Shown here piece by piece: positions 13,301-56,200 of a DNA stretch of 64,000 bases. The notes beneath the pieces were generated by a model. The model searched no databases and had not been told where the DNA came from. It saw only the letters and a list, made by a program, of their open reading frames with translations. The DNA is from Raja brachyura (lineage: Eukaryota): assembly GCA_963514005.1 (NCBI GenBank), contig OY740821.1:15066001-15130000 (forward strand). Direction: 5' to 3'. How positions within the stretch are numbered: position 1 is the stretch's first letter; each line of letters starts with the position of its first letter. A program made the position numbers and the translations under genes.

Positions 13301-16300
13301 GAGAAAAAACGTTTTCACCCAGAGAGTTATGAATTTATGGAATTCCCTGCCACAGAGGGCAGTGGAGGCCAAGTCACTGGATGGATTTAAGAGAGAGTTA
13401 GATAGAGCTCTTGGAGCTAGTGGGGTCAAGGGATATGGGGAGAAGGCAGGCACGGGTTATTGCTAGGGGATGATCAGCCATGATCACAACGAATGGCGGT
13501 GCTGGCTCGAAGGGCCGAATGGCCGCCTCCTGCACCTATTTATGTTTCAGCCCAGCAGTTCTGTACTGGCACTTTTCTCTACAAACCACCACAAGGTAAC
13601 ATTAGTATAAATTAGTGGGTGAGGTCTGAACCATTGATCCAGTAACGAGGGGTCCAGTGGTCCAATCCCACCACAACAATGTTGGATTTAAAGTTTTAAT
13701 AAATAATCTGATTTGAAAAGCTGATATGATATAATGATTAAGAAGCTACCAATATATCTATATCTATATCTCCCAACTAACCTCTGAAATGGATTGAGGG
13801 CACATGGGGATGAGTAATAAATCCTTGCCTTGCCAGTGGCAAATAAATCAAAAAATACCTTGAACCATTTTTGCTTTCTCTTTATTTCTCTCTGTCGAGT
13901 AACTATTTCATTTCCTTTTTAATTTAAACACAATAGCCTAGCTGCATTTGGGACAAATGTTTTAACTCTGATCCTAAATTAATGTTGCTTTTGTACAGAA
14001 AGAGATGCAAAATTTTGGAGTAACTCAGTGAGTCAGGCAGCATCCCTGGAGAACAGAGATGGGCGATGTTTTGGGTCAGATCCGTTGTTCTCCAGTGATG
14101 CTGCCTGACCCGCTGAGTTACTCTCGCATTTTGTGTCTGTCTTTGGTATAAACCAGCATCTGCATTTCCTTGTTATTATTTTCTTACAATCTCACTGTGC
14201 TCTTTGGCTACTCAGTGAAATTTCACACAGTACTGTTGTTCAAAAAGTGCAATTTAATCATTGCCAGTCGTTCCCAAATGGCAGCAAATCTACAAGGGCA
14301 GCCACTGATCTGCGAGAGATGTCTGATTTGCTGCAATACATCCACAAGATTAAAAAAAAAACCTGCATATGTTGAAGCAGGCCTACCAGCATTGACAAGA
14401 TTGCAATATAAAAAGCCCCTAAAATTGCTGACATAAGAAATGTTCAATTTGATGATGTTTATTGAGTCATATTTCACATGCCTTCAGGAGCCCCACCGAC
14501 CCCCCCCATACTCCCCAACTGTGTCCCTTTCATCTCTCTCATAAAGGCTGGTTTAAAAACTGGTGGGGGGGGAAAGGCTGGGAAAACAAACTGGTCATTT
14601 TTTTAGGGGGAGCCCAGCTTGCTTCAGGTCCAAATGTGGAAGTTAGATGGGTTTCAGTATGACCGGCATTATTTTTGATTTTGTTATGTCATTAAGTGAC
14701 ATAACTTTATTTTGATTAAACAAGCAAATATTATGTTTCATTATTACTCTGTGGAGCTTTAAGTGTCAATCACATGAAGATCAGGCCAGGGTAATGAGTG
14801 GCAGGTCTCCTTGCTGGAGGCATTAGAGAACCAGTTCTACTTCTGCAATAATAGGACACTTTTGAATGGCCCAAGTTATTCATTCTCAGTTTCCTTTGGG
14901 GTTTGAAATCTTCACTTGCAGGTTTAAGTCCCATAACTGTGTCACTCAACTACCATTGCTCCATGACTGGAGTTGCTCAAGCTGGATTTGCTTGCAGCTA
15001 ATGAACAAGTGGGTGTGGTTATTTTCCCACTTTGCTTCTCTCCAAAATGGTGATTCAGGTTTGGGTAATTTCTATATTGGGTAATGTCATCCAAGTTATT
15101 GTTTTCAGGTGAATAACAGCAATACATTTCTGGAGGGCATATTAGAAAGCAAATCTGGTCTTGCTTTGAATTGCCACCACAAGTTAAAAGGTACCCTGAC
15201 TTCCAATTGATCCTTGTTCAGACAAGCTGAAGATGATTCTTTGCTCTTATTGTATCACATCCAAATTGCGTTCCAGCACATTGCAGTACACTTTTGATAA
15301 CTGAGCAGACTTGGAGGTTTTGGAAGCGGAAATCTTTTTTCTAAAAATGAAAAATGGCTGATAAAACTGCAGTGAGGTTATTTGATCCACTGCCCATAGT
15401 TGCACCCCTATGCTAATCATGTGACTGCATTCATGTTTTGTAGCTGTCTGGCTGCTAACAACCTTTGTTGGCTCCCTGACAATCTTGTGAGCAGATAGAG
15501 CGGCAGCCAGGCCTCTATATGTTTCAGCCTGCAGGCTTGCTGGACTTTAACAGCTTGTGCTGTCGAACGCCTGTTTCACTGTTGCTAAATGTCTCAAAGC
15601 TTTTTTAAAATGTTTTTTTAATCAAAATATTAATGAAATAAAAACATGCTCATAGAATTAAAGAACCAAAAAAGCAGGATAAGCTTAATGAATGTTGCCA
15701 ATTCCAGTCAGATGGAAGGAACTACATGAAATGTGCCAGCTGCATCCTGTGTAAAACAGAGGTACAATATAATTACATTCAGCACCTTGGTTCAGCCAGT
15801 TATTGAATGCCCTGAGGTAAATCTATGAATGGAGCAAGACATTTGTTATGCCTATATCTGACCTCCAGTGCTTTTGTACTTTTGTGCTGCAGTGTGCAAG
15901 CGTTACAGTTGGAATGCACTGATATGCGTGTTGCAGTTTCTTTAGCACAATTGGGCTCAATGTTGCGAGTGAGTGAAGCTCCTAATTGGCAAAATCTATG
16001 TAGAAAATATGACCCATGGGGATAATGTAACAGGAAGCAGCTGCTCTCTGTGAATGGTTCGTTGTGAGATAATTGGGGCGTGGTGTATTTTGCAGAGAGT
16101 AGCATCCACAATTTGTATTGCTATTGCAATAACATAACCTTGCAAACGCAAAGACTTTAATAGATTGACATTATCAGGCTATTAAAAATGACTTTCAAAA
16201 ATATTCTCCTCTATCTGTTCAAAATACTCAATCCAATTCCAAGTTTTAGCTTCAGGAAATGTTGGGTTAGTTATATACATTTTAGGGTTGGAGTAATATA

Positions 16301-18249
16301 TTTTTCTGCCTTTTTCCATTTTCAGATTCCAAAGGAGCAAGTGATTGACACTGTGTACTTGTTTCACATGCCTCGGAAGAGGATGATCTCGCTGCGTTTC
16401 CTTGCATGGTATTTTCTAGGTCTGTATGTGTTACAACCCATTTTGACATTCATTTCTGTAGATCAACATGCATCATTCCAAACCTTTTTTTGCATTCATT
16501 GTGACTTATCAGTACGTTTAAGAAGTTAAAGTTGCTGATTGCATTGAGTTACAAAAATAGATGGGAGGGCATGTTGTGATGAAGAGATTTATACTTTGCA
16601 ACTGGTTATGGATGGGTTGAGTGAGTGGTGAAATATTAGCAAATTGAGTTTTATATGGGGAAAGTGAGATCATGCATTTCGGCAAGAGGAACCAAATGGC
16701 AAATTATTATTTAAATGGGTAGAGAGTGCATATGAATAGAGCACAGATTTGGATGTTCCTGTACATGAATCTCAATAGGTTAGCAAGCAGGTGCAGCAAA
16801 TGGCCAAGAAGGCAAATGACATATTGGCCATTATTGCAAGATGGTTGGAGTTGAGAAATTAGAAAATATTATTACAAATGTACAGGGTTGAGGCCACAGC
16901 TGGGGTACTGGGAACAGTTTTGGTCCCATTACTTTAGAAATGATACTAGAATTGGAGGCAGTCCAAAAGACACTCAAGAGTAGACACAATGTGCTGGAGT
17001 AACTCAGCAGGTGAGGCAGCATCTCTGGAGAGAAGGAATGGGCAACGTTTTGGGTTGAGACTCTTCTTCAGACATTCAAGAGTTCAATTCCTAGGATGAG
17101 AGGATTGTTCTATCATCAGCGACTAAAGTAATTAAATCTACATTCTTTGGAGTTTAGAAGAATGAGAGGTGATGTTGCTGAAACATATTAGATCCTTGAG
17201 GGGCATGATAGTGCAGATGTTGAGATGTTCAAGTGGACATAGTTTTAAATGACCACCCCCTAATCGTGTAACTGACATGTGTCGGGACATCTCACAGAGG
17301 GTGGTGAATCTCTGGCATTCTCTATCGCAGAGGATCTTGGAGGCTGGGTCATTGGTTTTTAAAGAGGTAGATAAATATTTGAAAGACTGGAATTGAGGGT
17401 TATAGGGAACTGGCACATAAGAGATGAGGTCTGGGACAGATCGGCCATTGTCATATTGAATGATGGGGCAGGGCTGAGTGGCTTACTCCTGCACCTATGT
17501 TCTTATGTTTTACTGAATGGCATAACATTGAGTACTGCAGTTAAACCTGCAGGAGAAAGGTGACTGCCCAGCATTTCAGTAGTTTGGGCTTTTGTTCATG
17601 AGATTGCTGCCTGATATGGGGAAAGCTGAATCTTGTGGATCTTGAAGATCCCATACCTGGTTAATGTTAATTACTATTATCTGGGGCAACAGCAGAGACA
17701 CGGCAGTTGGTATTCATACTGTTTAGCATCCTTCCTGGGGAAATCCAAAATGAGAGGGGCCAAGGTTCAGCTTCAAATGTGACTTTCTCCCAATTGAAAT
17801 CACCTGCTAATGCTCAGTGTGTAGGTTCAAGTGTAAAATGACTGCTTTGTTAATAAGAACTGGGGCATAACACAATTGGGAGTTAGTACTTGCAGGAAAG
17901 GTTGGGAAGAATTGGTCTAGAAATAGACAAGCTGATGGAGAGTAGAGAGGAGGTCTAGCTAGGCTTCTGCTGGAGGATGTTGTCCAGCCTTGCAAAATGT
18001 GCTCAAAAATGGAGAGATTGATTTGCGCTTTGTTGATTTCTTGGATAGAACTCAAAATTCAGGGTGAAACGCATGACAGCATAGAGGATGCCCGTACAGC
18101 ACTACAACTCTATCGAAAGTACCTGGAACTGACCAAGCACGGCATGGACGTAGATGAATTCCGAAAAATACTGAAAGGTCTATATGAGAAGGGCAGAAAG
18201 ATGGACTGGAAAGTACCAGAGTCTGAAGACGTCCAGAGCAGTCCAAAAA
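4212..18249 (+). CDS. PAN2: PAN2 poly(A) ribonuclease catalytic subunit, 3' half (pseudo-USP C-terminal part plus DEDD exonuclease), spliced
   Basis: Exons 4212-4310, 5164-5237, 6742-6883, 8674-8811, 9661-9720, 10277-10367, 10981-11138, 11252-11395, 11824-12003, 16326-16419, 18049-18249. All GT-AG and phase-compatible. DEDD residues present: LDAEF, HGLQKDF, HDSIED. Upstream exons lie outside the window and the last exon is unresolved. Confidence 0.96.
5164..5237 (+). CDS. PAN2: PAN2 exon ([13 protein letters not shown]...PTEW)
   Basis: Polypyrimidine tract plus cag/gtag. Phase 0 to 2 fits the neighbouring exons. Divergent peptide. Confidence 0.8.
5625..6525 (-). mobile_element. Rex1/Babar-type LINE RT fragment, decayed
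   Basis: Minus-strand peptides [20 protein letters not shown] and [13 protein letters not shown]. Confidence 0.8.
6742..6883 (+). CDS. PAN2: PAN2 exon (...[29 protein letters not shown]...)
   Basis: ag/gtatgt flanks, conserved peptide. Confidence 0.92.
7295..7565 (+). mobile_element. Old CR1 LINE 3' fragment
   Basis: gggcatagatttaaggtgagg...tggaataagctgccagagg...gcctgtttctatgctata resembles the CR1 3' ends elsewhere in the window. Confidence 0.7.
8674..8811 (+). CDS. PAN2: PAN2 exon (...[36 protein letters not shown])
   Basis: cag/gt flanks, conserved peptide. Confidence 0.93.
9661..9720 (+). CDS. PAN2: PAN2 exon ([20 protein letters not shown])
   Basis: cag/gtaatt flanks, conserved peptide. 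Confidence 0.95.
10277..10367 (+). CDS. PAN2: PAN2 exon ([30 protein letters not shown])
   Basis: cag/gtaggt flanks, phase 1 end. Confidence 0.93.
10981..11138 (+). CDS. PAN2: PAN2 exon ([12 protein letters not shown]...[12 protein letters not shown]), ExoI motif
   Basis: tag/gtacgt flanks, conserved peptide. Confidence 0.95.
11252..11395 (+). CDS. PAN2: PAN2 exon ([29 protein letters not shown]...TQEQ)
   Basis: cag/gtaatg flanks, conserved peptide. Confidence 0.95.
11824..12003 (+). CDS. PAN2: PAN2 exon ([18 protein letters not shown]...[13 protein letters not shown])
   Basis: tag/gtaggt flanks, conserved peptide. Confidence 0.95.
12321..13547 (+). mobile_element. Young 5'-truncated CR1 LINE (ORF2 RT plus 3' UTR)
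   Basis: [35 protein letters not shown] and LWNSLP motifs. 3' tail ggccgaatggcc..cctgcacctatttatgttt. Confidence 0.95.
13615..13842 (+). mobile_element. Ancient DeuSINE/SacSINE-like remnant
   Basis: aatcccaccac...aataaa..tctg... and the 3' aataaatccttgccttgccagt tail. Related remnants at ~22340-22460, ~40050-40480 and ~41350-41810. Confidence 0.5.
14001..14173. mobile_element. Penelope-derived fold-back element, hammerhead centre deleted
   Basis: Inverted arms ggagtaactcag..ggcagcatc..ctggaga / tctccag..gatgctgcc..ctgagttactc. Confidence 0.8.
16326..16419 (+). CDS. PAN2: PAN2 exon ([31 protein letters not shown])
   Basis: cag/gt flanks, conserved peptide. Confidence 0.95.
16570..17510 (+). 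mobile_element. Old CR1 LINE 3' part, interrupted by a Penelope-derived insert
   Basis: Degenerate match to 12680-13547. Confidence 0.75.
16982..17071 (-). mobile_element. Penelope-derived short element, degenerate hammerhead core
   Basis: Family consensus arm. Flanking duplication acactcaagagt / acattcaagagt. Confidence 0.8.
18049..18249 (+). CDS. PAN2: PAN2 exon ([18 protein letters not shown]...SSPK)
   Basis: tag/gtaagt flanks, conserved peptide with ExoIII motif. Confidence 0.95.
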
Positions 18250-21720: not shown

Positions 21721-21726
21721 AATAAA
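21721..21726 (+). terminator. Probable PAN2 polyadenylation signal
   Basis: AATAAA followed by a T/GT-rich downstream element, at the end of a repeat-poor UTR-like stretch. Confidence 0.6.
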
Positions 21727-22328: not shown

Positions 22329-23430
22329 TTAATGGACCTAAAGATGGAATTCTCTTCCCAACAGCACCTTCGGAACAACTGTAGTGGTCGAATTCAGCTC
22401 ACCACCACCACCTTAAGGGCAATAAATGCTGGCCTAGCCAGTGATGCCCAGCTCCTATAAATACATTTTTAAAAGGATAATCTGTTTGCAGTGAATGCAA
22501 GCTTGGCATGTGAGTTTCTAAATGAATGATTGAGTTTGTTTTGAATGTTGTACATGGGACCCATCATGAACCAAATGCTGCTGTGGGACAACTCTAGTAT
22601 GTGGACCCAGTTTTGACTTTCAGCAAAACACTTTTCTTTCAGCGCAAACTCATTGAGAGTCAAACTTGCCTAACTAATCTGGTTGCGCAGATTTAAATCC
22701 AGAACTCTTCTGAAGTTTATCTGATGTTTCCCAGAATCCTGATCCTTGGGTTAGCATGTTGCTTGCAGAAGTACAATCCAAATACTATTGAAGTTGAAAG
22801 GGATGTACACCAATTCTATTATGCTCTAATTCTTTTACCGATATTTTATAAATGATTAATGTTCGACAAAGAGTTACAATGTGAAACATAGCCAATTAAC
22901 CCACATTAGACAATATGCTTTCCTGACTTAATTGCACTTTGTGTTTGCTATCACTGCTACAATATCTGATCTGAGTTCTCAGCTCTTTCTTTGAGAAGTA
23001 CTTTTTATGCTCTCAGCTCTCATATCGTGGTCCCAGCAACCACGTTAAACTTTTATTATTGAAGAACAATGTACAATTTTGGGGCTTCAAAGAGATCAGC
23101 AGCTGAGGACTGAGAAGAATGTTTAGCACCAAAGCAGACATTGGTCTCCTTTGATGTAGCATTGGCTATATAACTTGGAAGTGCTGCCTAAATTCCATTA
23201 TACATGTCTTAATGTTTGTTCATACACATGGAAAATACCAAGGCTGCCACAATTCATAACATAGCGTGGTGGAGAGCAAGGGTGATAAAATGCATGATTC
23301 ACTCAATTTATTGTACAAAACGTGCCATACTGTTTTTTCACATTCTGCAAACATTGTTCTGTTTATTCAATTTGGACTGTGAGGCATTCCACTTCCCAGT
23401 CACCATTTTAAGCATTATACTAGGTGGACT

Positions 23431-23628
23431 CAAAGTGCTGGAGTAACTCAGTGGGACAGGCACCATCTCCGGAGAGAAGGAATGGGTGACGTTTCAGGTC
23501 AAGACCCTTCTTCAGACTGAACAGTCACCCATTCCTTCTCTCCAGAGATGCTGCCTGTCCTGCTGAGTTACTCCAGCATTTTGTGTCTATCTTCAATTTA
23601 AACCAGCATCGGCCGTTCTTTCCTACAC
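23431..23628. mobile_element. Penelope-derived fold-back element with hammerhead core (minus strand, 23488-23515)
   Basis: Inverted arms. 14-bp TSD atactaggtRgact (23417-23430 / 23629-23642). Core CTGAAGA-A-GGGTC-TT-GACCT-GAAACGTC. Confidence 0.88.
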
Positions 23629-23899
23629 ATACTAGGTAGACTATTGCTTTGTCCTTTCCTTGCATTTATTGTTCTCTTGCTCTCAGCTCATTCAACTGTG
23701 CAGCCACGTGTTGGATGTACTGTGTGTTGTCAAGCATAGCTAATATCTTTTGCCCCTCACTGCTTTATCACTCCCCCATTCTGGGATGTAAATTGGCTAT
23801 CTTGCAAGAGACAGGTTTTCTTTTTTCTTTGTCCTTATCCAGTCCCTGAAGCATAAAGCAACACTGAATAGCAAATTTCTATTTTCTATTGGCCCCAAT

Positions 23900-24923: not shown

Positions 24924-26416
24924 TAGGTCTTCCTTTCCATTTTGTCATTTGTCCATGTGATTAAATTGATACGGTCAGTAAGTATGACTTCTGTATATGT
25001 CACTCAGAATCTATTTTGAACAGGACAAGTTTAGGAGGCCATTCTTATAATAAATCTTTCTCCCCAAACTAATTTCACAGCTGAATTTTCATGTTAATGT
25101 TGTGTTCACTATGCTCTGAATTGATGGCACCCTCCAGTTCCTTCATACTTTTGTTTTCTGTCAAGAAAAGGGGTTTATACTGTGACACACACAGCCCAAA
25201 TTTTAGTTCACTTTTGACAAAGACATTCCCATGTTTAGATTGTGCTTGCAAGTAGCAAGGGAAGCAGGGTCACTATTATTCCATGAGAGTGAGAAAGGCC
25301 CCACTTTTGCCAATTCTCCCAGTTTCCACCAAGCTAATGATCGAAGCCTTGAATATACTCAATGACTGAGCCTCTGCAACTCTGGTGGAGTGGAGAATTC
25401 CAAAGATTCACAATCCTCCAAGTGGAGAAATGTCTCCTTATTCACAGTCTCATATGGACAACCCCCTTATCCTGAGCCTGTTTGTTTTATAATCAACTGC
25501 CAAGAGACACTTAGCAATACCTCTCAGAATCTTGAGTCCCAATTAGATTACTTCTCACTCTTCATAGGGCAATCTCCATAATATACATTGCCCATCTTTC
25601 TTCAGGTAATGCAAGAGGTCATGGTACTGGGAGTTCTGGTTTCAACATTGGTGCAGATTTCAACATTAGACTCAGAATAAGGAAGATAAAAATAAAAAAA
25701 CAAAATATTTGTTGATGTTATCTGTCTCATTCAAAGAATAAAATGCAGAACTTAATCAAAGTCTTTGACCTTTTGGGATCAAATTATAACAAAAGCCTCA
25801 CTCTTTTTTTTACATTTCACATGTAAAACATTACCTAATTTGCTTCTACAACATTTTATTCTCGACTAACATAGTGAACAATGTCTAAAAGTGACCCAAT
25901 ATATAATATGCGCTGAATGTCAACTTGCACTGAGGTAACACTATCTGTGAACTAATTAACATTTTTGATTCTGGAAGTAGAGCCCAAGAGTGTTAAGTTT
26001 CAGCTTGGAATATTGCACAATGAAGGGGGAGCAGGGTGTGGCAAGATTATCTTTACATTGTCCCTTTACTTAATCTCTTGTTCCTCCAAGGAGATGAGTG
26101 AAGACACTGCACCCAGAATTGAAATACACACTTTTGTTCCTAGCTTTTCATTCCAGAGCCTTTAACACAATGGAACTTAATCTAGTTTCCCTCAATCCTA
26201 TGATCTTGAACTTTGCAAAACCTAAAGCCTGTTTTTTTTGCCCAGCTTGCTTTGTGCCCTGACCTTTGGGCTTTGAGCCTTTGTCTAGGTTTCTTAATTT
26301 AGACCAGACATTAAAAAGCATTCTGTAGATAAAATAAGGCACCAACAATTAAAGCAGCAATTATTGGCTTTTCTCTTAATCTTTAAATTTTGTGAAAAAT
26401 GTTGAGTTCAATGTTA

Positions 26417-26546
26417 TGTTTAAGAAGGAACTGCAGCTGCTGGAAAATTGAAGGTAGCCAAAAATGCTGGAGAAACTCAGCGGGTGAGGCGGCATCTATG
26501 AAGCAAAGGAAATAGGCAACGTTTCGGGTCGAGACCCTTCTTCAGA
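26417..26546 (-). mobile_element. Penelope-derived short element with hammerhead core (minus strand, 26518-26545)
   Basis: TSD caatgtta. Core CTGAAGA-A-GGGTC-TC-GACCC-GAAACGTT. Confidence 0.88.
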
Positions 26547-27423
26547 CAATGTTAAGTTACTTTATGTAAAACAGATTACAAAAGGCAGTTTAATTTCAAA
26601 CAATAACAATTTATTTTTGTTATTACCTGGGAAAATGCAGCAATTTGCCTTGGTTACTGTGTGTTTTAAGTTCAACCACCACTAGGCACTGACTTGAAGG
26701 AACGGATTGCCTTGTAGAGAATTAATCTTGTCAAATAAAGCAGAGACATGCTAATAGGCTGCACTGCCCATAGTTAAGGAGACAACTCTAGTACAAACTT
26801 GTGCTCTGTTTAGTGTTTGTCAGATACTGTTTCAGGGTAGATATTAGGCTCTACTGTACCATGATCATTGAACAAATGGAAACTCACATCCTAGTGTTAT
26901 TCACATGAAGCATGGAGACTTGGGCAAAGCACCAGTGGGCTCTTGGATCTATGTCAAAGATCAATGGCATCCACAGAAGAAATACATGATCTCACTTTTA
27001 AATGAATGGAGCTTTCCCACAGCTGTTGCATTATTGGTACATGGACAAACCATTAAGATTCTGCCTAAGGCTAATATGCAAGAGACCAACAGGAGTATTT
27101 TTGAGTTGGTAGACAGGGTAAAACCTGTAGCGGAGAACTTCAACCTGCTTCAGAACTTTTCTTTGGTTTGCAGCTGCTTTGTAAAACAAAAGATAGATTT
27201 AAAATAGCAAAATGCCTGTGATATAGTCACTGCCTCTTTCCCTTCTCCAATTTGTATATTTTATAGAACAAGGTAGATCTTTATTCTGGTATATTGTTTG
27301 AGTGTTATAAAACAATGTCTATTAAGCCCATTTAATGTTTATAAAAAATAATTGGCTAGGAATAGGACAATTAGATTCTTTTTTGTGACCCATTGCCTCT
27401 TAATTTTAGTGTGAAATAAAACT

Positions 27424-27913: not shown

Positions 27914-30900
27914 CTGCAAAAAGAAAAAAAAAAATACATGAGGGGAATAATTTTACACCTTGACAAACCTAACAAGAACTACTTGTTATAATGCAGACAT
28001 TAGTTCCATCAAAAAGCTGTGAAGTGGTGTTGGTTATCTGCTAATTGTGATCTGGAGACCGACATAAACAGACCACTGATTTTCTGCAATATGGAAAATT
28101 ATGCAGAATGCAGCATTCATCATCCATCTCAAAAGGCCCATGAGAAGGTGGTAGGTAGCCACCTCTGTGAACTGTGCCATGTTACCCTAATAGTGCTATT
28201 TGGTAGGGAGTTCTAGGGTTTAAACCCAGCAATGACAAAGGAATAGTGATATATTTCCAAGTTTACACAAAGTGTTGCAATAACTCAGCAGGTCAGGCAG
28301 CATCTCTGGAGAAAATGGATAGGTGACATTTCAGTCTGAAAAAGGATTCCAACCCGAAACATCACCCATGTTCGCCAGGGATTCTGCACGACCTGCTGAA
28401 TTACCTCAGCACTTTGTCGTCTTTTGTAAACCAGCATCTGCAGTTGCTGGTCTCTATTTGTCTCGATAGTGCCCAACCCAGGCCACATAAAAAGATTTAC
28501 AAACTCACATTACAATTGCTCCATAATCTTAAATCTCTATTCCTTCACTGTAAATTACTCTATTGTAATTTTGTATTGTCTTTCTGCTGACCGGATTGCA
28601 CGCAACAAAAGCTTTTCACTGTACCTCGGTACACGTGACAATAAACTAAATTATAACTATTTCCAAGTCGTGGCTGTCTGCAATGTGAAGGGCAACCTGC
28701 AGGTGGTGGTGTTTCTATGTTCTGTTACTATTATATTTATAGGTGGCAGAGGTCACAGGTTTGGGAGGTGCTGTTGCAGAACCTTTGGCCAACTATTCTT
28801 TTGTATCTTGTAGTATTTTAGAAAATGCGTAGAGTTTTCTGTATGGCCTCAAAGAAAAGAACAATTGTCTTCAAACGGTGCTGGTTTTGATCGTCTTCCT
28901 TCTAACATTTATTTGCTCAGGATGCAGTATTTAGATTGGACTCTGACTACTCAAAATACTATTTGATTGACCAGGCAGATAACCAACACCCTTTCATTGC
29001 AAATACTGAAAATCACTCCACCTTAAGATGGGGTCCACATCGTTAAAAGGCACATTAATGACTCCCATTATTGGCTGTCCTGAGTTTCTATCAAAGACTC
29101 CAATGAGTACAGTAGCAGATTTCAGACCACTTGAGTGAATGCCAGATTTGTACTTCTCCTCAAATTGTCCTTTTATGTATTGATTGGTTGAATCTGTAAA
29201 ACAGAAACATATAAGATTTAAAATATATATACAAAGATTTTTTCAGTTAATTGAAATGTGCAGACCCACTAAATCCACGGCATTTGTACTTCTTGCTTTT
29301 TCTTTCATTTCTCTGAGAATCCAGGTGTCGCTGACAGGACCATCATTTATCACCCATTCCTAATTGCATCTTGGGGATGTGATGTGCTGGGCAAGGTGCC
29401 TTCTCAAACAACCCCACAGCAGTTAGGTGGAATTTGGTCGAACTGAAGAGTTTGCTGGGCCATTTCAGAGGGCAGCTATGGGTTAGACTGCCCCAAGTCT
29501 GGAGTTACATATTCATGTTGAGAATTCGCACAACACCCACAAGGAATTTTACTTTTATCACTTTCCAAAGCAGTTATTTTTCCAATCATCATTAGTCAAC
29601 TGCTGGAGGAAGAAACAAAAGGGTTTGGGCTGATGGGGGAAGGGAACATCTCTATCTGCTTGTGTGGATGCCTCCAAGACAATCAACTTCTTGATTTAGC
29701 TTTGCCTTGATCAGCAAAGTCAAAAGAATCCCACCTTCAGAAAACTTTAATCCACACCTATGTTGGGGAGAATTTATTTTTGTAAGATGGTTAAAGGTTT
29801 TACTTACCAATAGGATCAACCCATATTCCTATGGTGTCTATAGGAATGTCTATATTTAGTTCTTCTGAGGCTGGACCATCAATGTGGATATCTTCGTGGA
29901 TGCACTTGGCCAGAAGGCCAGCAGCTTTCAGATTCCCATCTAGCACTTTACTTATTAATTCTGCAGTTGCTTGCTCTGTTTTGCAGACTTTCACAATAAT
30001 TGTTTCACCTGTAATGAAAATAAAGAGCACAGGATTGTAATCCATCGGGGTCGTCAAAAAGAGTACCATGTGCAACTTTGGTCTCCTTATTTCAGGAGAT
30101 AAATGAGATACTGAGCCCATCCGTGGGAAGGAGACCAGTTAATGGCAGCCAATTAAGTAATTCACCCAAAGCTGGTTCAGCATTAACTGTTTGTTACTTC
30201 AACTCCCTCACATCTGAAAACCCGACTGCATTGCACATGCCATGAGATAACTTAAGAAGTGTCTTGTCACATACCCAAACCATTTTCAAAATGATTGGAT
30301 TCCTCTCCAGCGATGCGAGATGCAAGCTCCGGAAACTAATGGGAGAGAAAGATAACAACTAAAGTATCTAAATAAATTTACAGAGTTAATTTAAACAGTA
30401 GCCAGCAGATTTTAAAAGAAACCTCTTCATGAGTCTGTCCAAGACACCAACCCAAATTCTCTCCAAGCCAGGATCCCAGTGGAGTAGAGCAACAATTGAG
30501 GGCAGATGTTCTTTCACTCGTCCCCTTCCTTCCGATTAAAATTAATGTCTCACTTGAACTCATCAACATTCAGAGTACAGAAACAAGGAACAGCAGATGC
30601 TGGTTTACCAAGGAAAGACACAAAATGCTGGCTAACAGCAGGTCAGGCAGCATCCCAACAGAACATGGATAGGTGACGTTTTGGGTCAGGACCCTTCTTC
30701 AGACGAAACATCTCATATATTTTCTGGCCCTTAAAAGTGGGAAAGAACCATTCATTAACTATCAGCCTAGGATTCCAATGAATCAGCCACAAGGCAGATA
30801 TTATGTGCTTCTATCGCACACTAAGGATGTACCTCAGTCCCTGACCCTCCATTGTGGAGAACAATAACGTTTCCATTTCTAACTCTACACCAAAGCAAAC

Positions 30901-35570: not shown

Positions 35571-35719
35571 TGGGACATATAGCTTACTGAGACAACAGTT
35601 TAGAGATGTGTACCAGCCTTTTGTAGCAAAGGTTTACAAGCCTGGCTCCAGTTGCACAAGGCTTGGTGAGGAATAATAGTTTTGAGTGTTGTATCCAAGG
35701 AAGAATATGCTTAACAGAT

Positions 35720-40186: not shown

Positions 40187-40353
40187 TGTGTAGGACGGAA
40201 CCGCAGATGCTGGTTTACACTGGGTTTACACCTGGTTTACACCGAAGAAACCGTCAGACTGAAGAAGAATCTCGACCCAAAACGTCACCCATTCCTTCTA
40301 TCCAGAGATGCTGCCTGTCCCAGTGAGTTACTCCAGCATTATGTGTCTATCTA
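40187..40353. mobile_element. Penelope-derived element, degenerate hammerhead core
   Basis: Exact 14-bp TSD agattgtcatcaaa (40173-40186 / 40354-40367). Internal ggtttacac triplication. Confidence 0.85.
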
Positions 40354-41250: not shown

Positions 41251-44200
41251 GGGGTGTAATTCCTGAAGGCGTGGATGGATAAGCTTTTTTTTTGTTTGTT
41301 TTTTCAGAAAAAAAAATCTGAATCACGTCGAGATATAGTGTTTAAGTTACTGGAGCTGCATCCAGAGACCTGGAACATTGAGTTAAAGAAGGAACTGCAG
41401 ATGCTGGAGAATCGAGGGTTACACAAAAAGCTGGAGAAACTTCAGTCTGAAGAAGGGTCTCGACCCGAAACGTCGCCTATCTCCTTAGATGCTGCTGCAC
41501 CCGCTGAGTTTCTCCAGCTTTTTGTGTAACCCTGGAACATTGATCTCGTGACATGAATTCATCCCACCGTAGCGGCTGGGAGATTTAAATTCAAGTAATT
41601 CAATAAATCTGGATTAACCATTCAGTATCAATAATCAAAAGATATCTAATTGCCTTGTGGAAGGGGGGGAAACATAATAATGGCCTGCAGTAAGAAAAAT
41701 CGTATTTCTTACCCATTCTAGGTTATTATGTGATGGCAGACCCAGTAATCTGACTTTTAACAGCCACCTAAATTTGGAAGCAATTCGGACTGTATAATAA
41801 ATGGCAATTTTTTTTTTTTAATTGTCGGGGGGATGGCAGGTGCAGGGGAAATATGCAAATAACTGATTGATCCTCAAATTGTGAGGAGCAATGCTGATAC
41901 AGTTTTGAATAGAGGAAAGTATTTTAAATTATAAAAGGCTGTAACGAGGTGAGTAGCAAATGCTGTCTCCTTCAATTGAGGAGTTGAAGGTTCATCAATT
42001 TTAAACTTCTGGTAGAAAAATTAAGCTCTTCAGAGTTTGAAAATAAAGTAGTTGAGACAGAAACTATTGTATAATGAGGGCAGGATTATTTTTTTTAATA
42101 CAAGGGTATGGGGAAACAGTAGGATGATTGGATGAATCTAAGCCTCCACAATTCCAAACTTTGTTTTTACGTTATTTTAGTTGACTGAACTGAGACAAGA
42201 ATGTGTTTCCAGAGGACTAGATTCTAAAGGAAACAAACAGGATCTCATCCAGAGACTGCAGGCTTACCTGGAAGAACATGGTAACATTTTAATTACTATT
42301 TATTTATACTATATATACCGCACGTTATAAAGTTTGTTCAACATTTATAATTTAATCTAGTATGTACTTATGGCAGATTGTGCATTATTTCTCGTTAACC
42401 AGACATTGAATTTGCAAACAACAAGTCCATTGAGTTGTTAAGTGTTAATCTAAATTAATTCTAAATCATACACTTCTTGATCGCTATAAAGGTGACAGCA
42501 TTAGCAGTAGTTGATCAAACTGCTCAATCTGTACCCTTCCAAGTTATACTATCATATGATTTCTTCCTGTCACTAATTTATGTTTGAAAGCTCATGATTT
42601 AGTGGCTTTGCCTTCAGTGTAATTTTGTTCCAGTTTCTTTAAGCATATGCTTACTGATGTATTTATAAACATCTCTTTAAATGTAGCCCATGTATCCAAT
42701 TATCCTTTCCACAATGTTCTCAAGTCAGATTCTCTGATACACAAAATATAGCACCAAATGTTTAAGTCGTTTTTTTGAGGATTGCTTGGGTAATGAGAAA
42801 AGTACACAGTGGGAAACAAACAAGCAAATTCATGATTTTTGAATCCAGAATTATTAGAAATTGACTTTAAGGTTTTTCAGCTAACGAATTCAAAAGTTAT
42901 GACATCCCTTGTCTTAATCAGATGCTTTGACAGGATGGGATGTTTTGCATGTATTTGTGAAAGTGAGCCAAATGGTTATCTCATTTTTATTTGCGCCATG
43001 CATTGTATGTTGTCATGGACTTTGGATGCCATTGCAGTTCTTGCAGCTCATCCCTGTTCAAAGTCGCTATTTTAGGTGTGCAGTGGAAGAGTGCTTATTT
43101 TCTCTTCAATCTGGTCAAAAGACCTAGTTGAAACCATAGTCTCCTCCATGTGGATTTCCTCTGCATTTTTTCATTATGGCCTAGATAATATATGTGAGTT
43201 TTATATGTTGAAATGAAAAGGATGTTAAAATGATGGTGAGACACCATTTTAAAACTAAGTCTTAATGTCCATGTGTGAATTTGCAGTCCTTTCGCATGTT
43301 GTTTTGTATTCAGCAATACTATAAGCTTCCTTTAAAATGCATTTAATTGCAATGTGGTTTAAAACAATAATTAAATTAGTTGATATTTATATTGTTTGTG
43401 GCTTCTGTACTGAGTCAGCTGATGTCGGCCATATAAATAGTTGGGTATTCGAACAAAACTTAAAAATAACGGAAAAGCTCACCACTTCAGACAGACTGCA
43501 CATGGAGAGCAGGGAAAAGTTATGAGTGCACTTGTCTGTTTTGCGCTTCTGGGTTAGAGTAGAAAATTAGCATACATTTTGCATGCGCCAGGCTGTGATG
43601 CCCCTTTTTGGCTGAATAGTTCAATAAAACATGAATACAATAGATTATTATCAAGAAAAGTAGGTAAGCAAGCAGAGCTGGTTAACGATTACAAATCTTG
43701 AATCCATCTAGAAAATATTTCTGTCGTATACTTTAACAGTGATCTGCAATATATGTCGTATTGGTTACAGTGCACCAGCTTAATGTCATCACACAGCAAA
43801 TGCAGCATGTAAGGGGATGGGGCTGAATATATTTTGTTGTGAAGTATGTGTGCTCTTTAACCCTAATTCTAGGGAAAGTTCTTTATTTTATGCTGTGCAT
43901 CCTTTTAAACTACAATATTCTAATACTTTCTAGAGCTTGACCTTCAATAGAGTGACTGAGTATGTAGGTAATTAACTGTTAAATCTAGTCCTTCTGTGAG
44001 ATCAAACTAGTAATGGTCCTGTTTAAATATGCTGCTTTCTGTTACAGCTGAGGAAGAAGTGAATGAAGAAGATGTTCTAGCTGAAGATACAGAGGTAGAT
44101 ATCATCTCAGTGTATCGTTGCTCACCGGAATGTTGTGGCATCAACGTTAAAACGTAGTTAAAGCTATCTTTGTCTAGTTCTACATATGGCAATTCACATC

Positions 44201-47200
44201 TAGGGTTCTGCCGTGACTCTTTTTACTGATGGTACTAGGATTGTGGAGATGAGCAAGTCAACATGTCTGCAGTCATGACTTATTGGGTCTGTTTTATGTT
44301 TCTTAAGTAGAATATAATTGAAACACTATTCTTGGGCCTTAAGGGAGATGCCACGAAAGCCTTGGGCTGGGGTGCAATGAGAGCAATCTCGGGCTAAGGG
44401 ATTGAACTCGGCTGCGGAGTAATTTCTTCACCCAGAGTTGGGAATCTTTAAGTTCTTCGCCATTGAGATTTGACTGCTCAATCGTTAAGTATGTTTGATG
44501 CTGTGACTGTTTAAATTTTTGCGTTATGAGATTTGGCATTGGAGGCAACATCATGTTAGGTGATGGGCTGAGATTTATGGGTTTGTATATGTTAGTCAAT
44601 AAGTTTGATGAACCTTTTTGAATATTAGATTTCTGGGGAAAATTACATAACAGTATCTAAATCCTTGGCTGAATGTTGAGAATGTGCGTTGCCTTGAAAT
44701 GACCAATGAATAGGTTAGTTTGACAAAGTGTTAAAGAAGGAACTGCAGATGCTGGAGAATCGAGGGTTACACAAAAAGCTGGAGAAACTCAGCGGGTGCA
44801 GCAGCATCTAAGGAGTGAAGGAGATAGGCGACGTTTCGGGTCGAGACCCTTAGTTTGACATATCGCTTTGCACTGTATTCTTGATTAGAGTCAAGCATCC
44901 TAGAAACGGACCCTTTGGACAACTTGCCCCTACTGACCAACATGCACCATCTACACTAGCCCACCTATCCGTATTTGCCCCATATCACTCCAAACCATTC
45001 CTATTCATGTATCTGTCTAAATGTCTTTTAAATCGTGTTATACTATGTGCCTCAACTACTTCACTCTTTGTGTGGAAAAAGTTGCCCCTCAGTTTCCTAT
45101 TAAATCTTTCCCCTCTCACTGTAAACTTATGTCGCCTGCTACTTGGTTCCCCTACTCTTGGTAAAAGACTGTGCATTCACCCTATCTATTCCTCTCGTGA
45201 TCTTGTACACCTTTTTAAGGCATAGAGAGAGAGAGAGGGGTAGATAGTACGGGTGTCATGGGTTATAGGGAGAAGGCAGGAGCATGGGGTTAGGAGGGAG
45301 AGATAGGTCAGCCATGATTGAATGGTGGAGTAGGCTTGATGGACCGAATGGCCCATTTCTGCTCCTATCAATTGTAACACCCCTATAAGATCACCTCTCA
45401 TCCTCCTGCCCTCTTAAGTAATACAGTCCTAGCCTGTTCAACCTCGCCCTATTGTTCAGGCCCTCAAGTCCTGGCAACATCTTTGTAAACCTACTAGCCA
45501 CTATTTCCTGCTTAACAACGTCCTTCATATAGCACGGTGACCAAAACTGAACACTTATTCCAAATGTGGCCTAACGTCTTGTACAACTTTAACATAACAT
45601 CCCAACTTCTATACTCGGTCAGATTAGTTAGAAGAATTTATGCTTTAATACAGGGCATTTTCATAGCTGATCAAAATCTCAGCTTGTATAACAGGAAAAA
45701 TGCATTTAAGAAATAAGAAAATAAAAGCAAGCTCCAGTTATTTGATTATTTAGCAAAGTTATGCAATATGGGATATCTATGAATGCTGAACAATTTTAGT
45801 GCATCATATTCTGGGAAGGATGTGGCAATTGGAGGAGTGCAGCAATTTTTCATGCGGACACTGCATATGAAGAAAGACTGGATAGACTCGGCTTGTACTC
45901 GCTGGAATTTAGGAGATTGAGGGGGGATCTTATAGAGACGTACAAAATTCTTACGGGGTTGGACAGGCTAGATGCAGGAAGATTGTTCCCGATGTTGGGG
46001 AACTCCAGAACAAGGGGTCACAGTTTATGGATAAGGGGGAAGTCTTTTAGGACCGAGATGAGAAGATCATTTTTCACAAAGAGAGTGGTGAGTATGTGGA
46101 ATTCTCTGCCACAGAAGGTAGTTGAGGCCAGTTCATTGGCTATATTTAAGAGGGAGTTAGATGTGGCCCTTGTGGTTAAAGGGATCAGGGGGTATGGAGA
46201 GTAGGCAGGTACAGGATACTGATTTGGATGATCAGCCATGATCATATTGAATGGCGGTGCAGGCTCAAAGGGCCGAATGGCCTACTCCTGCGCCTATTTT
46301 CTATGATTCTATGCAGAATACGGGGATATTTGGAAGAACAACAGTTTAAATTTGATATGTTTTAATCTGAATGAGTTTTATAGTTAATATTTAGAGATAT
46401 TTGTCTATCAAAGGTGATTATGTGGAATAAAAACATTACTTTGAGTTGACCTCTATCCTGCCAATATTCATGGAGAACAGTCAAAATATTGGAAATTCTG
46501 GAGATGTGATGGAGCATGATGTCTCTATCTCTCATGTTAGCCACTGGAAAACAGAATGCATTGACGTTTTTACCCTGAACTCCTATGTTTCAGCAAAGAC
46601 TAAAGTGTCTGTTGTTTTAATTGTATAAATACTTATTTCCTGAAAACATTGATGTTCTTCACTTCACACACAGGAAGAGGAACAACAGCAGAAAGCTGAG
46701 CCAGAAGTTGAAGGTCAAACTGTTGCTGCCAAGGAACCAGAAGAGTAAATATTACTAATTTCAGTTTCGCATTATTTTGCTGTGTAACTTGCCATCTATA
46801 TACAGAGAGTTGGAATTATGCTGATAAACTACACATTCTGCTCCCATTTTTGATAGAATTTCCAAGGAAAAATGTCAAACGTGCACTTGTGCTAGCACTG
46901 AATGTAATTGGAAGATATTGTTCATAACTCAAATATTTTCAATGCAAGGTGGAAATGATCTTATTGACTTTGGTTGCGTGTTGAATATTTGATGTTTCAA
47001 ATTTTACTGCTAAATTAGGCTTATCAAAATTGTTTTGTCTTTCAGCCTACAATCAATCTTAATTCTGCTCTAAGATGCTACTTTAAGATTAATGAGAAGT
47101 GTGCTACATATATGGTCCTCAACATTGCTCTTTATAGGTTGATTAACCTGTACATTAGATGCACAGTCTTTTCCCCAAAGTAGGGCTAATCAAGAGCCAT

Positions 47201-53200: not shown

Positions 53201-56200
53201 TGTTATTTGCGTTACTGAAACCATTCATTATATAATGTATTGTTCAAGCTTTACAAACCTAATGAGAGAATAAATGAGTAGTAGACCTTTGTTTTATAAT
53301 GCTGTTGCAGCGCAAAACAGTAACTGAATTTGTCAATCCCCTCTGTTCCATCTAATAATTAGAGGCGTGTTGACTCTTACATCCAATTACTCGTTGCTAA
53401 CCTGAGTCTGTTGTTCTATTGGAATCTAATTAACGTTTACAACTGTTGCTGGTGCACCTTACAGTTACAATATTTGTTTGAAGGTTTCCAGTTACCAAAT
53501 ATTTCCAGTTTCCAGTTATAAAATATATAAATAATACCTCAAAGTATATATTACACCTAATGTTGTGCATTTTGCAAAGTGCTGGTTGTGGTATTGCTAG
53601 TTGAGTGATGAGTAATGTCGATTTGATGCATGGCAGAAAGGAGGGGATGGACAAATCTGGCTTGTAGGTTGGCTAATTGTTTAACACCTCCTGTCTTTTT
53701 TCCAACCAAGTTTAAAAGTTTAATTATCATAAGGTGTTTTAAATGTTGTCCCCATTTAGACTCCTTGCAGCATGTTGTGAGATAATGACCCGCTTGCTTT
53801 ACATTGAAACCACACTTCTCTGCATTAAATATCCACGTTGCCATTACTTTTGAAACTACACATATTCAGCCATTATTCCATTTTGTGCATGCAGTGAATG
53901 TAAACTTTTATTATGCAGCACACTTCAATGGGCTCCATCTGTCACCTGCGGTTTTTGCTGCCTTGAGTCCGCAAACAATTTGGCTTTGTGTTAAGAGTAC
54001 TGCTTGTGTGAGCCACTTAAGGCAACAATATGTTCTTTCTACCCCCTCCTGAGCTCTTGTGGCGCCCTCCGTCAAGCCACGCTAGTTGATGTAATGAGTG
54101 TTGACAGCAGGATGAACATGACTGGCAGCTACAAAAATTGTAGCCCAGTGAAGTTGTCATTGTCATTGGCCGCTTGCTGTGCGAAGGGACTGATTGTGAT
54201 TGATGTGTGCACCGTCTCTTTGTCTGTCCACAGCACTGTATCGATCTGCTTCATCCCACTTCATAACACAATGGTAACTGCTTACAATGCAAACCTGAGG
54301 GGCCAGGGATTGCAATATCTAAGCCAATGAACAAAACCAAAAGCTAGGTGTGTGTGTGTACAGTCCTGCTTTCCCTTCGGCCTTGTAAATTCCTCCTCAA
54401 GACTAATTTTGAAATGAAAAAGATCCTTTCCTCATGGAACTGTCACATTTTTCTTAATGTCTTCCTGTGATACTCTGAGGTGTAGCCTCCATGAGATGCT
54501 GAACACGTTAAAAATACATTTGTGTAGTTTCGAAAGTGATCGGTAAACTCTGGCATTCCAGTAATATTAAAATGTTCTCTTTATTTGTCTGCATCCAAGG
54601 TGCATTCTCCACAAAACAATTCTAGTATTTGAATGTGGAGAAAATTGACTTCAACTGCAAGAGAGGCTGACTGATTTTGTTTTCTCTCCTTTCCTCTAAT
54701 GACTTTAGTTTTAATTTTCACTCAATTGCTTTGTTCTGTTTGAATTTACACTGCAAATTGAATCCTAGTGCTTCTCTCAAGATGTACTAAAATATACTTT
54801 GGAACTATTTTGTGACATAATTTCCGAATGTTCCTTGTGTTAGTCAGACGTTCAAATTATTTGTTTTAAATGTCATTTTCTTGGTGTTTAAAGACTAATT
54901 TGCCATGTTGAGTTGACTACTTGCGTCGGGGCAATTTGAATGCAGAAAGAAGGAACGGCAGATGCTGGTTTACATTAAAAGAAAGTGCTGGAGTAACTCA
55001 GCGGGACAGGCAGCATCTCTGGCGAACATGGATAGGTACAAAGTGCTGGAGTAATTCAGCGGGTCAGGCAGCATCTCCGGAGAACATGGATGGGTGATAT
55101 TTTGGGTCGGGACCCTTCTTCAGACCGTTTTTTTTTTTTTGTTTTTTTTTTTAAATTAGGGTTGGAGAGAATTTCTTTCCTTGCATTCTTTTGCCCCTCT
55201 AGATCAGTCTGAAGAAGTTTCCTGACTCTCAACATCACCTATCCACATTGTCCAGGGATGCTGCTTGACCTACTGAGTTAGTTCAGCACTTCGAATTTGT
55301 CCTGCTGCCGTGATCCATATTCCCACCTTCAGAGCTTTGTTGTCGTTGCTTCCAACTTGACAAGGATTTGCTTTATGCAAGTTATTTTTGATGGGGGATG
55401 CTGGTGAATTAAATTGAGGTTGCTTGAGAAACTAAAGGCCCGTGTAAGTTACATTGATGGAAGCAAGTGCAAGAAAGGAAGTTTACATTGCCACAAAGTA
55501 AATTCTTTATCACCAGTGCGGTTTAACCAACATCAAGCATACAGTGCGGAATAATTTATTTGGTGTAAAAAATTTTGCTCCTGTTTGAGAAGCTGCTTTT
55601 CAAATTCAGTTTGCACTTTTTTGTAAATAACAACTTTACACCACTTTGTGCAATGGCAACTCAAGCTTTAATGTAACTACAGCTGTTCTGTTCTGTCAAA
55701 CTTGTCATCTGGTGTTGTATTAACATTTGAAGTTTCAAAGGGGAAAGAGATTACGTTGAATCCTCCTGTAATAGTTGTCTTGTCCGGGGAAATGAGAGTT
55801 TCCTGGACAAGACCTACAGTGAGATTGTCACACCAAGGATACAGGAAGAGTGAAGATGGGTGACTGAGAAAGAGCAGTAAACGTGGATTGTAGGAGACCC
55901 CGTTGGCTGTACCTACTGAAAACAGGTATGCCCTCTTGGGAGCGGATGACATGACAAGATTGAGTGGTAGCCAGGGCTGTGACTCCAACCCTGATGCTGA
56001 GGCTCGACGGGGAAGAGTGACGTCAGGCAGAGCCATAGTGTTGGGAGACTCCATTGTTAGAGGTGTGGACAGGAGATTCTGCGGCAACAGGCAAGACTCC
56101 AGGATGGTGTGCTGCCTCCCTGGTGCCAAGGTCCAGGACGTCTCGGAGCGGCTGCACGCCATCCTCAAGAATGAATGGGGAGTGATGGGGAGCAGCCGGA

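Follow-up and report, generated by a model that had tools for sequence, protein, structure and literature searches.

Short hammerhead-bearing repeats of Raja brachyura as likely dead-end copies of a Penelope-like terminal repeat

A 64-kb stretch of the Raja brachyura genome (hereafter the window) contains short repeats built around a minimal hammerhead ribozyme core. On first inspection these repeats were predicted to form a dense, non-autonomous and retrozyme-like family that seeds the introns of housekeeping genes. The locus raises two questions: from which element do the repeats derive, and does the ribozyme take any part in their spread?

Repeat copies in the window

All 13 predicted insertions were recovered by blastn and a profile HMM, which resolved them into 20 arms and found an extra third arm at 55204-55298 in the copy at 54945 (Table 1). 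The four cores described as intact or near-intact lie exactly where the original prediction had placed them. Seven of the 13 insertions are head-to-head composites, an arrangement that had gone unmentioned. None of the 13 consists of head-to-tail tandem units of about 150-450 bp with a hammerhead in each; such units were seen only at rare loci outside the window, L220 and L260, the latter with a 311-bp unit whose junction recurs at L226.

Table 1. Repeat arms, cores and host exons located in the 64-kb window
Position	Strand	Feature	Details
13998..14176	.	Two decayed arms, head-to-head composite	core partial only; TSD of at least 8 bp not found
16978..17073	-	Single arm, degenerate core and short tail	8-bp TSD
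23421..23631	.	Head-to-head composite	9-bp TSD; minus-strand core 23488-23515 passes descriptor, buried in predicted fold-back hairpin
26414..26547	-	Single arm, long tail, core 26518-26545 intact	8-bp TSD
28260..28456	.	Head-to-head composite, degenerate core	blastn/profile HMM
30577..30704	-	Single arm, CpG-decayed core, long tail	blastn/profile HMM
33792..34006	.	Head-to-head composite, two cores	plus-strand core 33920-33947 near-intact
35712..35802	-	Old decayed core and tail, parent element still attached	
36028..36198	-	Broken C-terminal GIY-YIG endonuclease remnant of Penelope-like ORF	tblastn E 1.2e-6, 45% identity
37261..37332	-	Tail without core	blastn/profile HMM
40186..40352	.	Composite: short inverted tail piece and direct arm, degenerate core	14-bp TSD
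40808..40846	+	Host gene coding exon 1	ATG, 13 codons, GT donor
41382..41531	.	Young composite: inverted arm 41382-41441 and direct arm from 41443	13-bp TSD
41447..41474	+	Minimal type I hammerhead core	putative cut after 41474; host pre-mRNA sense strand
42181..42279	+	Host gene exon 2, SAP domain	Pfam SAP E 6.5e-13
44725..44851	-	Young single arm, start inside core	122/123 identity to intact element; 11-bp TSD
54942..55298	.	Three-arm composite: minus arm with internal duplication, spacer of about 78 bp, plus arm	

The young composite at 41382 consists of an inverted arm with 60/60 identity to the intact element described below and a direct arm that differs from it solely by an 8-bp deletion. 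Its core at 41447 lies, as predicted, on the sense strand of the intron between coding exon 1 and the SAP-domain exon of a host gene that we take to be SARNP. The composite at 28260 is flanked by two minus-strand exons of the inositol-monophosphatase family. A tRNA search of the window found none, and therefore no tRNA-derived SINE head is present there.

The repeat alone accounts for 4.4% of the sampled DNA, corresponding to an estimated one million insertions genome-wide, which bears out the very high copy number originally proposed. Given this abundance the window is not dense: it has 2.0 insertions per 10 kb as compared with a sampled mean of 3.58 (bootstrap 2.95-4.24), and a density below the genome mean speaks against the supposed preference for housekeeping introns.

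The hammerhead core

The exact 27-nt core occurs 60,059 times genome-wide, while its reversed pattern does not occur at all. A structural descriptor gave 26 matches in 380 kb of sampled genome versus 0-2 in each of ten Markov shuffles, and four matches within the window. The recurrence of the core is not due to chance. The four window cores share the minimal hammerhead pattern, namely CUGANGA, an extra base, a helix II closed by G-C, GAAA, a palindrome and NUH, and an intact core is found in 21 of 97 full-length sampled arms. Helix II had been described as kept across copies with a varying loop. A 4-bp stem closed by a 4-nt loop (CUCG, CCCG or UUCG in the subfamily consensuses) is the better reading, and the supposed loop variation across copies is mostly CpG decay. 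For the core comparison, 109 of 203 arms were complete enough to be aligned and 76 were assigned to subfamilies. A search for other hammerhead families with CUGAY cores returned 2,053 matches, the first 100 of which were all variants of this same family.

The parent element

Both the core and the tail of the repeats are shared with intact Penelope-like elements, in agreement with the Penelope-type hammerhead that had been suggested. The anticipated autonomous partner, with RT, GIY-YIG and the same termini, was also found: intact ORFs of 1,192 aa, free of stops and 98.9-99.2% identical at the DNA level, are flanked by the same core and tail. These ORFs carry YIDD and IY-C-x-x-C..C-YIG and combine the RT with a CCHH-bearing GIY-YIG at the C-terminus in a single frame. 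Pfam RVT_1 and GIY-YIG match the ORF below their curated cut-offs and match 48 and 44 of 55 aligned relatives, respectively. The CX2-5CxxC linker between RT and EN, which is diagnostic of the Neptune clade (PMC8557442, PMC3846280), is present as C-x4-C-x2-C at residue 1059 and is invariant among the 55 aligned proteins. A PDB search with the single protein gave no match, and a profile search retrieved bacterial RTs only and weakly (best E 0.0023); TERT, to which the RTs of Penelope-like elements are sister, was not among the matches of either, and NCBIfam gave no match. The parent is almost certainly a very young Neptune-type Penelope-like retroelement.

The ORF of this element begins about 163 nt after the hammerhead, and a UTR lies upstream in six of the 11 copies that continue into the ORF. 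The pseudo-LTR arrangement is represented by L053, a partial tandem with an inverted truncated copy. Each of the seven tail subfamilies has at least one copy joined to its own endonuclease gene end, in a mixed and non-random set of copies where the link for subfamily E consists of two copies, one of them (L048) probably an artefact. Within the window, the broken endonuclease remnant lies about 225 bp upstream of the 35802 core. The repeats are almost certainly dead-end cDNA insertions of the terminal repeat of this Neptune-type element, a pseudo-LTR made of the minimal hammerhead and a 65-100-nt tail. At 4.4% of sampled DNA, this suggests that Penelope repeats make up a major and possibly mis-annotated share of the Raja brachyura genome.

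Copy ends and the origin of the repeats

Copy ends were compared among 99 young arms from the first 2.7 Mb of one contig, comprising 46 short, 24 inverted and 29 long arms. The 5' start of short copies is sharp and falls 2-5 nt ahead of the core, in most cases preceded by an untemplated G: 35 of the 46 begin between -10 and +2, with a peak at -3 (11 copies), and none of the 99 arms begins at -11 to -60. Six apparent starts at +51 turned out to be alignment artefacts of a TGC expansion. In the sampled blocks, 133 of 183 arms lack an exact core start and were left unclassed. TSDs of at least 9 bp within 15 nt were found for 18 of 46 short copies versus 8 of 2000 shuffled pairings. Overall, TSD length varies from 8 to 17 bp, the 3' ends fall near +94 and +129, and the tail is present at one end only. 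Head-to-head insertions join an end at +88..97 to an end at +121..130 in ten of ten cases (11 of 11 arm pairs), and all ten composites are asymmetric.

The extra G is also evident genome-wide, where the base before a -3 start is G in 4,404 cases versus A or T in 5,073 (46% versus about 28% expected). At the position-0 control the counts are 729 G versus 1,282 C, with the C side inflated by inverted junctions. Among 30 copies with the G, seven have a TSD of at least 9 bp; the G lies outside the TSD in all seven and is the sole extra base in three. Template-jump junctions with extra bases and starts at -5 to -2 have G as the adjacent base in 14 of 15 cases (p 5e-7 against 0.3).

The best explanation of these ends, and one that we consider likely, is a capped leader copied by twin internal priming. 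The RNA would start just before the hammerhead, a position that we infer from DNA junctions, and would be capped at its 5' end. RT would be primed from nicked target DNA at two internal sites, near +94 and +129. Priming in the 3' repeat would generate ordinary 5'-truncated copies with UTR and ORF, whereas priming in the leader would let RT run off the RNA after 100-130 nt, with the cap copied as an extra G. Joined to the target, the run-off cDNA would form a short copy with an 8-17-bp TSD; combined with a second cDNA primed on the other target strand at the other site, it would form a head-to-head composite; and a jump, either into the 3' repeat or onto an acceptor between +185 and +260, would yield tandems and regenerate the pseudo-LTR. 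The hammerhead may travel as a passenger, kept in active lineages and unneeded in inserted copies. Published biochemistry is consistent with this model: in vitro, two internal RT start sites, nicking and extension of both strands and a dispensable hammerhead have been described (PMC11167929), and a 5' G is known as a cap mark in retro-insertions (PMC9578705).

Several points count against the capped start. An RT with a cap-independent preference for adding C would yield the same G, and the +2 starts likewise carry G (2/2). Four near-full-length copies begin near +16, +34, +82 and +125 and not at -3, and of 53 jumped segments 30 have their start past +30. Finally, a pyrimidine tract with CAG upstream of the core resembles a splice acceptor. 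This resemblance bears on the alternative that survives best, though we consider it unlikely, in which the Penelope origin is retained but the 5' boundary is a 3' splice site or a hard RT stop, and the G is a cap-independent terminal addition. In all UTR-bearing subfamilies a pyrimidine-rich stretch ending in YCAG lies just before the core, often with CTGAC, and the D. virilis Penelope has a 75-bp intron that lies 46 bp downstream of the start site and has its end at helix I (PMC2377424, PMC4209133). However, 35 short copies have no common 5' exon upstream, TSDs mostly abut the boundary (0-6 nt), no peak of starts follows the putative branch A, 29 of 99 arms read through the boundary, and the G excess is found at -4/-3 with none at 0. 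Ribozyme self-cutting at -4/-3 was rejected as the cause of the boundary because the youngest subfamily lacks NUH there and keeps the same boundary.

A separate non-autonomous family, retrozyme- or SINE-like, whose short copies would themselves be transcribed and then mobilized in trans by the Penelope protein, is quite improbable. Short copies do vastly outnumber ORF-bearing ones, with exact matches genome-wide numbering 84,207 for the tail, 13,093 for the UTR just upstream and 726 for the ORF start, so that repeat-only insertions are about 100-fold commoner than ORF starts. Short copies would also contain the inferred start site and the promoter-like motifs downstream of it, and the rare tandem derivative at L260, with its junction recurring at L226, fits such a family. 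Yet tandem derivatives make up less than 1% of copies and the window copies are not tandem, an endonuclease-linked parent exists for all seven tail subfamilies, 29 of 99 young arms run on into UTR or ORF, and young short copies equal the leader of the intact element almost base for base. The window copy at 35720, with its endonuclease remnant upstream, speaks against independence as well. By analogy with Anolis, the +130..+260 region that short copies lack may be needed for protein binding (PMC11167929).

The capped-leader model can be extended further, although this extension is tentative and rather doubtful. The 28-nt hammerhead might be kept mainly as a DNA core promoter and capped leader. 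Replication would then be akin to retroviral strong-stop synthesis: a dimeric RT would make leader cDNAs from both target strands, these would occupy about 4% of the genome, and their jumps to short RNAs with ends near +200 would both rebuild pseudo-LTRs and yield retrozyme-like tandem units. Promoter-like motifs include an initiator at -3 and, counted from its A, CGANC at +18..+22 and a 4/5 DPE match at +28..+32. The promoter idea was kept out of the main model because these motifs were chosen post hoc, the CGG part of the MTE fails (1/3), and subfamily B has a broken CGANC while keeping its helix II pairing.

Ribozyme activity of the copies

The original prediction held that catalytic bases no better conserved than their flanks would tell against working ribozymes. 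At the level of copies this is the case, because catalytic bases decay like the flanks: 52 of 757 non-CpG catalytic positions are mismatched versus 349 of 4477 downstream (p = 0.42). Activity of the inserted copies is unsupported; judging from sequence and predicted folds they look inactive, and the hammerhead within them is probably not functional. It is very improbable that the hammerheads act in vivo, with cleaved RNA serving as template and host pre-mRNA being cut by intact copies in sense orientation such as 41447. In favor of activity, the 11 catalytic positions are equal in five of six subfamily consensuses (the exception, a group of four copies, has a single CpG change) while 16 of the 33 positions that follow the core vary, and the Anolis hammerhead cleaves with its protein present (PMC11167929). 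Nevertheless, N7, a free position, varies no more than the catalytic positions do. Similarly, two of 46 short copies begin exactly at the cleavage site, +28, but this hint is gone genome-wide, with 166 starts at +28 versus 123 at the control +31, near background.

Structural predictions point the same way. Helix I has 2 bp, as opposed to the 4-5 bp expected of minimal hammerheads, and a predicted probability of 0. In context, helix II of the 41447 core has a predicted probability of 0.02. The active dimer is predicted at -12.7 kcal/mol versus -19.7 kcal/mol for the best dimer fold, and three window cores lie within predicted fold-back hairpins. Helix II shows no two-sided changes among subfamilies and a single one-sided change, U-A to U.G. 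An Rfam search at E up to 5 matched no hammerhead family, giving only partial U2 and hairpin-type chance matches.

Comparison with known systems

As a ribozyme find the family is ordinary, since both the motif class and its host element have been described; minimal hammerheads in Penelope repeats have been known since 2014 (Cervera and De la Pena 2014, PMC4209133). We found no account in the literature of the Raja brachyura family or of a capped leader, nor a prior report of the sharp 5' start behind an untemplated G and the consistent pairing of the two 3' ends; Repbase or Dfam may already hold the family. Its value is that of a natural experiment, in which repeat ends record how the poorly understood Penelope-like elements copy themselves. 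About one million insertions and near-identical intact ORFs yield junction statistics that bear on how pseudo-LTRs, head-to-head repeats and one-sided tails arise in these elements, and on what the hammerhead is for. The statistics favor a sense template that is capped, twin priming at internal sites and template jumps, and they point away from any use of cleaved RNA.

The minimal hammerheads of metazoan Penelope pseudo-LTRs (PMC4209133) agree with it in their type I core, in the extra nucleotide that precedes helix II, in the closing G-C pair and in the palindrome that takes the place of helix III. They likewise occur mostly as solo or opposite-strand copies from truncated elements, and in fish they are found in Neptune elements. 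The Raja brachyura family differs in its 2-bp helix I and 4-bp helix II, and in scale, with 60,059 exact cores and about one million insertions versus about 4,000 in coelacanth and about 9,000 in Xenopus. The accessible parts of that survey and its supplement file 2 name no cartilaginous fish.

Animal non-LTR retrozymes (Cervera and de la Pena 2020, PMC7229834; Li et al. 2026, bioRxiv 10.64898/2026.07.22.740005) are similarly short hammerhead units related to Penelope pseudo-LTRs, and the 311-bp tandem at L260 is of this type. In contrast, the window copies are solo or head-to-head, their hammerhead is minimal rather than canonical, and the parents are coding. A type I hammerhead of the canonical form, with the loop 1-loop 2 contacts that mark retrozymes, was not found, as seen from the 2-bp helix I and the lack of an Rfam match.

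The Anolis Poseidon element PAc (Frangieh et al. 2024, PMC11167929) has two internal RT start sites defining the tail, as proposed here. Its hammerhead is likewise unneeded for insertion, and no RNA ends were reported at the cut site. PAc belongs to another clade, and the accessible text of that in vitro work neither maps the 5' end of the RNA nor deals with copying of the cap or acceptors for jumps. The ORF of PAc starts within the hammerhead, in contrast to the later start in Raja brachyura.

EN+ elements of the Neptune clade (Craig et al. 2021, PMC8557442; Arkhipova et al. 2013, PMC3846280) share with the present element a single ORF for RT and C-terminal GIY-YIG with the CX2-5CxxC linker and CCHH motif, the occurrence as partial tandems with an inverted 5'-truncated copy, a variable TSD and a tail of 30-40 bp confined to one end. 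The N-terminal region is longer in the present element (1,192 aa), and its repeat-only copies are in roughly 100-fold excess over ORF starts. Whereas self-priming on an antisense template has been suggested for such elements (PMC3846280), the junctions in Raja brachyura favor a capped sense template with twin priming.

Origin of the window repeats

The repeats in the window almost certainly derive from a Penelope-like retroelement. A Penelope-type ORF end lies directly upstream in four among the first 20 genomic hammerhead cores. A search with the protein of that ORF end scored 111 of 152,444 candidates, each of them 98-100% identical. Three of eight long loci contain a stop-free ORF of 1,192 aa (pairwise identity 98.9-99.2%) that includes YIDD, the linker C-x4-C-x2-C and a GIY-YIG containing internal cysteines. 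The Pfam RT and GIY-YIG matches of this protein fall under the cut-off; 48 and 44 of 55 aligned relatives, respectively, do match. Locus L053 comprises a truncated copy, a repeat, the full ORF, another repeat and an inverted copy, the textbook Penelope-like layout (PMC8557442). These ORFs, flanked by repeats at L053, supply the autonomous RT and GIY-YIG partner envisaged in the original prediction. Its separate non-autonomous, retrozyme-like family is not supported and not needed, since the window copies at 41382 and 44726 are almost base-for-base matches to the repeat of the intact element, an endonuclease remnant is still attached to the old copy at 35720, and each of the seven tail subfamilies includes at least one copy linked to an endonuclease.

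Copy number

The four predicted hammerhead cores (41447, 23488, 26518 and 33920) were found in place, and all 13 window insertions were recovered, as 20 arms (single stretches of repeat), by profile HMM and also by blastn. Seven of the 13 are head-to-head composites of two opposed arms, and six carry target-site duplications (TSDs) of 8-14 bp. The exact 27-nt core has 60,059 matches in the 2.70-Gb genome, presumably that of a cartilaginous fish (reversed control, 0). Across 38 sampled 10-kb blocks, placed at round coordinates of the large contigs, 136 insertions make up 4.4% of bases (reversed control, 0). The mean density of these sampled blocks, 3.58 insertions per 10 kb (bootstrap 2.95-4.24), corresponds to an estimated 0.97 million insertions genome-wide (0.80-1.14 million). 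The very high copy number expected for the family is thus borne out, whereas the window itself, described as dense, has 2.0 copies per 10 kb and lies under the sampled mean. Exact genomic matches numbered 84,207 for a tail 22-mer, 13,093 for a UTR 20-mer and 726 for an ORF-start 26-mer.

Ends of short copies

Element positions are counted from the C of CUGA as 0, with the putative cut after +27. Junctions were anchored on the tail 22-mer; of the first 100 matches listed, 96 were used, together with three more in the fetched stretches. These 99 arms comprise 46 short, 24 inverted and 29 long ones (the long arms run on into the UTR or ORF); 35 of the 46 short arms start at -10 to +2, most often at -3, and no arm among the 99 starts at -11 to -60. 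The 3' ends cluster at two sites, near +94 and near +129, and all ten head-to-head insertions with both arms scored have one of each within one TSD-flanked unit. Genome-wide, the base preceding the -3 start is G in 4,404 cases and A or T in 5,073 (expected G share 28%); before position-0 starts, G occurs 729 times and C 1,282 times. Seven G-copies have a clear TSD, with the G outside it in all seven and the sole extra base in three. A 5' G serves as a cap-copying mark in retro-insertions (PMC9578705). The initiator consensus of PMC5580651 is matched by the sequence at -3.

Several individual features were also observed. At L098 (G000:C1:1207499-1207812), head-to-head arms lie ~150 bp of other sequence apart within a 15-bp TSD, both starting with G + AGT. 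Short copy L047 sits within the UTR of a further copy of this element. A TGAC/CGAC word occurs 3-8 nt upstream of the boundary in the otherwise unalignable UTRs of subfamilies A, B2, C and E; possible roles for it are pairing with the cleavage site and binding of a factor.

Fusions and tandem units

The 60 stretches fetched for the ORF start contain 64 matches to it. Of these, 11 continue into the ORF, six of them as partial tandems; the other 53 end at +173 to +284, mostly fused to the -7 to +2 boundary of the next arm or to its UTR. Core fusions (n = 24) have their acceptor at +185 to +259, and G is the adjacent base in 14 of the 15 cases that combine extra bases with a start at -5 to -2. 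Leader and ORF start are fused back to UTR or core in tandem units of 311 bp and 191 bp at L260, L226 and L220. The 311-bp unit has at least three junctions at L260 (G000:C1:162939334-162940421), and an identical junction is found at L226.

Proposed copying mechanism

The insertions originate from the repeat of the element. They show a sharply defined 5' boundary, two alternative 3' ends, an untemplated G, TSDs and fusions. Judging from the DNA junctions, we favor run-off copying of a capped leader as the likely explanation. The capped RNA would start at -5 to -2 and the RT, which by analogy with PMC11167929 probably acts as a dimer and nicks both strands, would prime internally at +94 and +129. 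Primed in the leader, it would run off the cap, and the cDNA would join the target, a second cDNA or another template; a jump to another template would rebuild the pseudo-LTRs and occasionally make tandem units such as that at L260. Among single loci, L080-L082 (G000:C1:659957-660363) best illustrates run-off and jumping: it is one TSD-flanked insertion with three arms, namely an inverted one, a leader to +230 and a second leader. Counting against a capped -5 to -2 start, four near-full-length copies begin at about +16, +34, +82 and +125, 30 of the 53 jumped segments start beyond +30, and +2 starts carry G too.

The sharp boundary also resembles a splice acceptor, as in the Penelope of D. virilis (PMC4209133, PMC2377424), but no shared 5' exon was found upstream of the 35 short copies examined. 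Self-priming on an antisense template, proposed in 2013 (PMC3846280), explains neither the sense-strand G nor why the two 3' ends are always combined with each other.

Hammerhead conservation and folding

At the level of subfamily consensuses, the 11 catalytic positions do not vary apart from a single CpG change in a group of four copies. N7, a free position, is constant as well, and 16 of the 33 positions immediately downstream vary. Covariation in helix II did not emerge, U-A to U.G being the sole change among these consensuses. Nor is the core conserved above its flanks within copies, with non-CpG catalytic mismatches at 52/757 vs 349/4477 downstream (p 0.42); an intact core is retained in 21 of 97 full sampled arms. 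In RNAfold predictions for the four window cores in context, helix II does not exceed a probability of 0.18 and helix I has a probability of 0; three of these contexts are fold-back hairpins. The active dimer form is predicted at -12.7 vs -19.7 kcal/mol for the best dimer fold. Genome-wide, 166 copies start at the cut site vs 123 at a control position. Decay, folding and start counts agree with the low activity reported for minimal hammerheads (PMC4209133) and with the protein-assisted, dispensable hammerhead cleavage of the Anolis element (PMC11167929).

Host genes and other features

As predicted, the 41447 core is in sense orientation within intron 1 of a SAP-domain gene, which we take to be SARNP; hammerhead cutting of this pre-mRNA at the putative site 41474 is unlikely. 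The U2 snRNA fragment is probably a pseudogene, and the inverted repeats are possibly MITE-type elements. Outside the window, several Penelope copies lie inside LINEs like those whose fragments are listed below.

Additional features annotated in the window
Feature	Position	Strand	Remarks
U2 snRNA 5' half	1965-2065	+	Rfam 91 bits; 3' half absent
Long inverted repeat	3347-3649		79 bp, 100%
Exon of further host gene	8608-8874	+	Pfam UCH_1 match
LINE-type retrotransposon fragments	12287-13541, 34469-35587, 45864-46304 and others		RT matches
Exons of further host gene	27427-27978, 28997-29242	-	Pfam inositol-monophosphatase matches
Long inverted repeat	31923-32193		88 bp, 93%; unrelated to 3347-3649
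Endonuclease remnant	36028-36198		attached to 35720 copy
Tandem duplication	38682-38907		113 bp
Degenerate array	48898-49206		36-97-bp

Comparison with known elements

Searches of openly accessible article text returned no account of the scale of this family, of a capped leader or of these junction rules. The element itself is of a known kind, Penelope-like, with a linker that marks it as probably Neptune-type following PMC3846280 and PMC8557442. The 311-bp junction recurring at a second locus makes L260 and L226 a candidate retrozyme-like lineage, and the formation of such tandem units by jumps would correspond to the route of retrozyme birth proposed in bioRxiv 10.64898/2026.07.22.740005.
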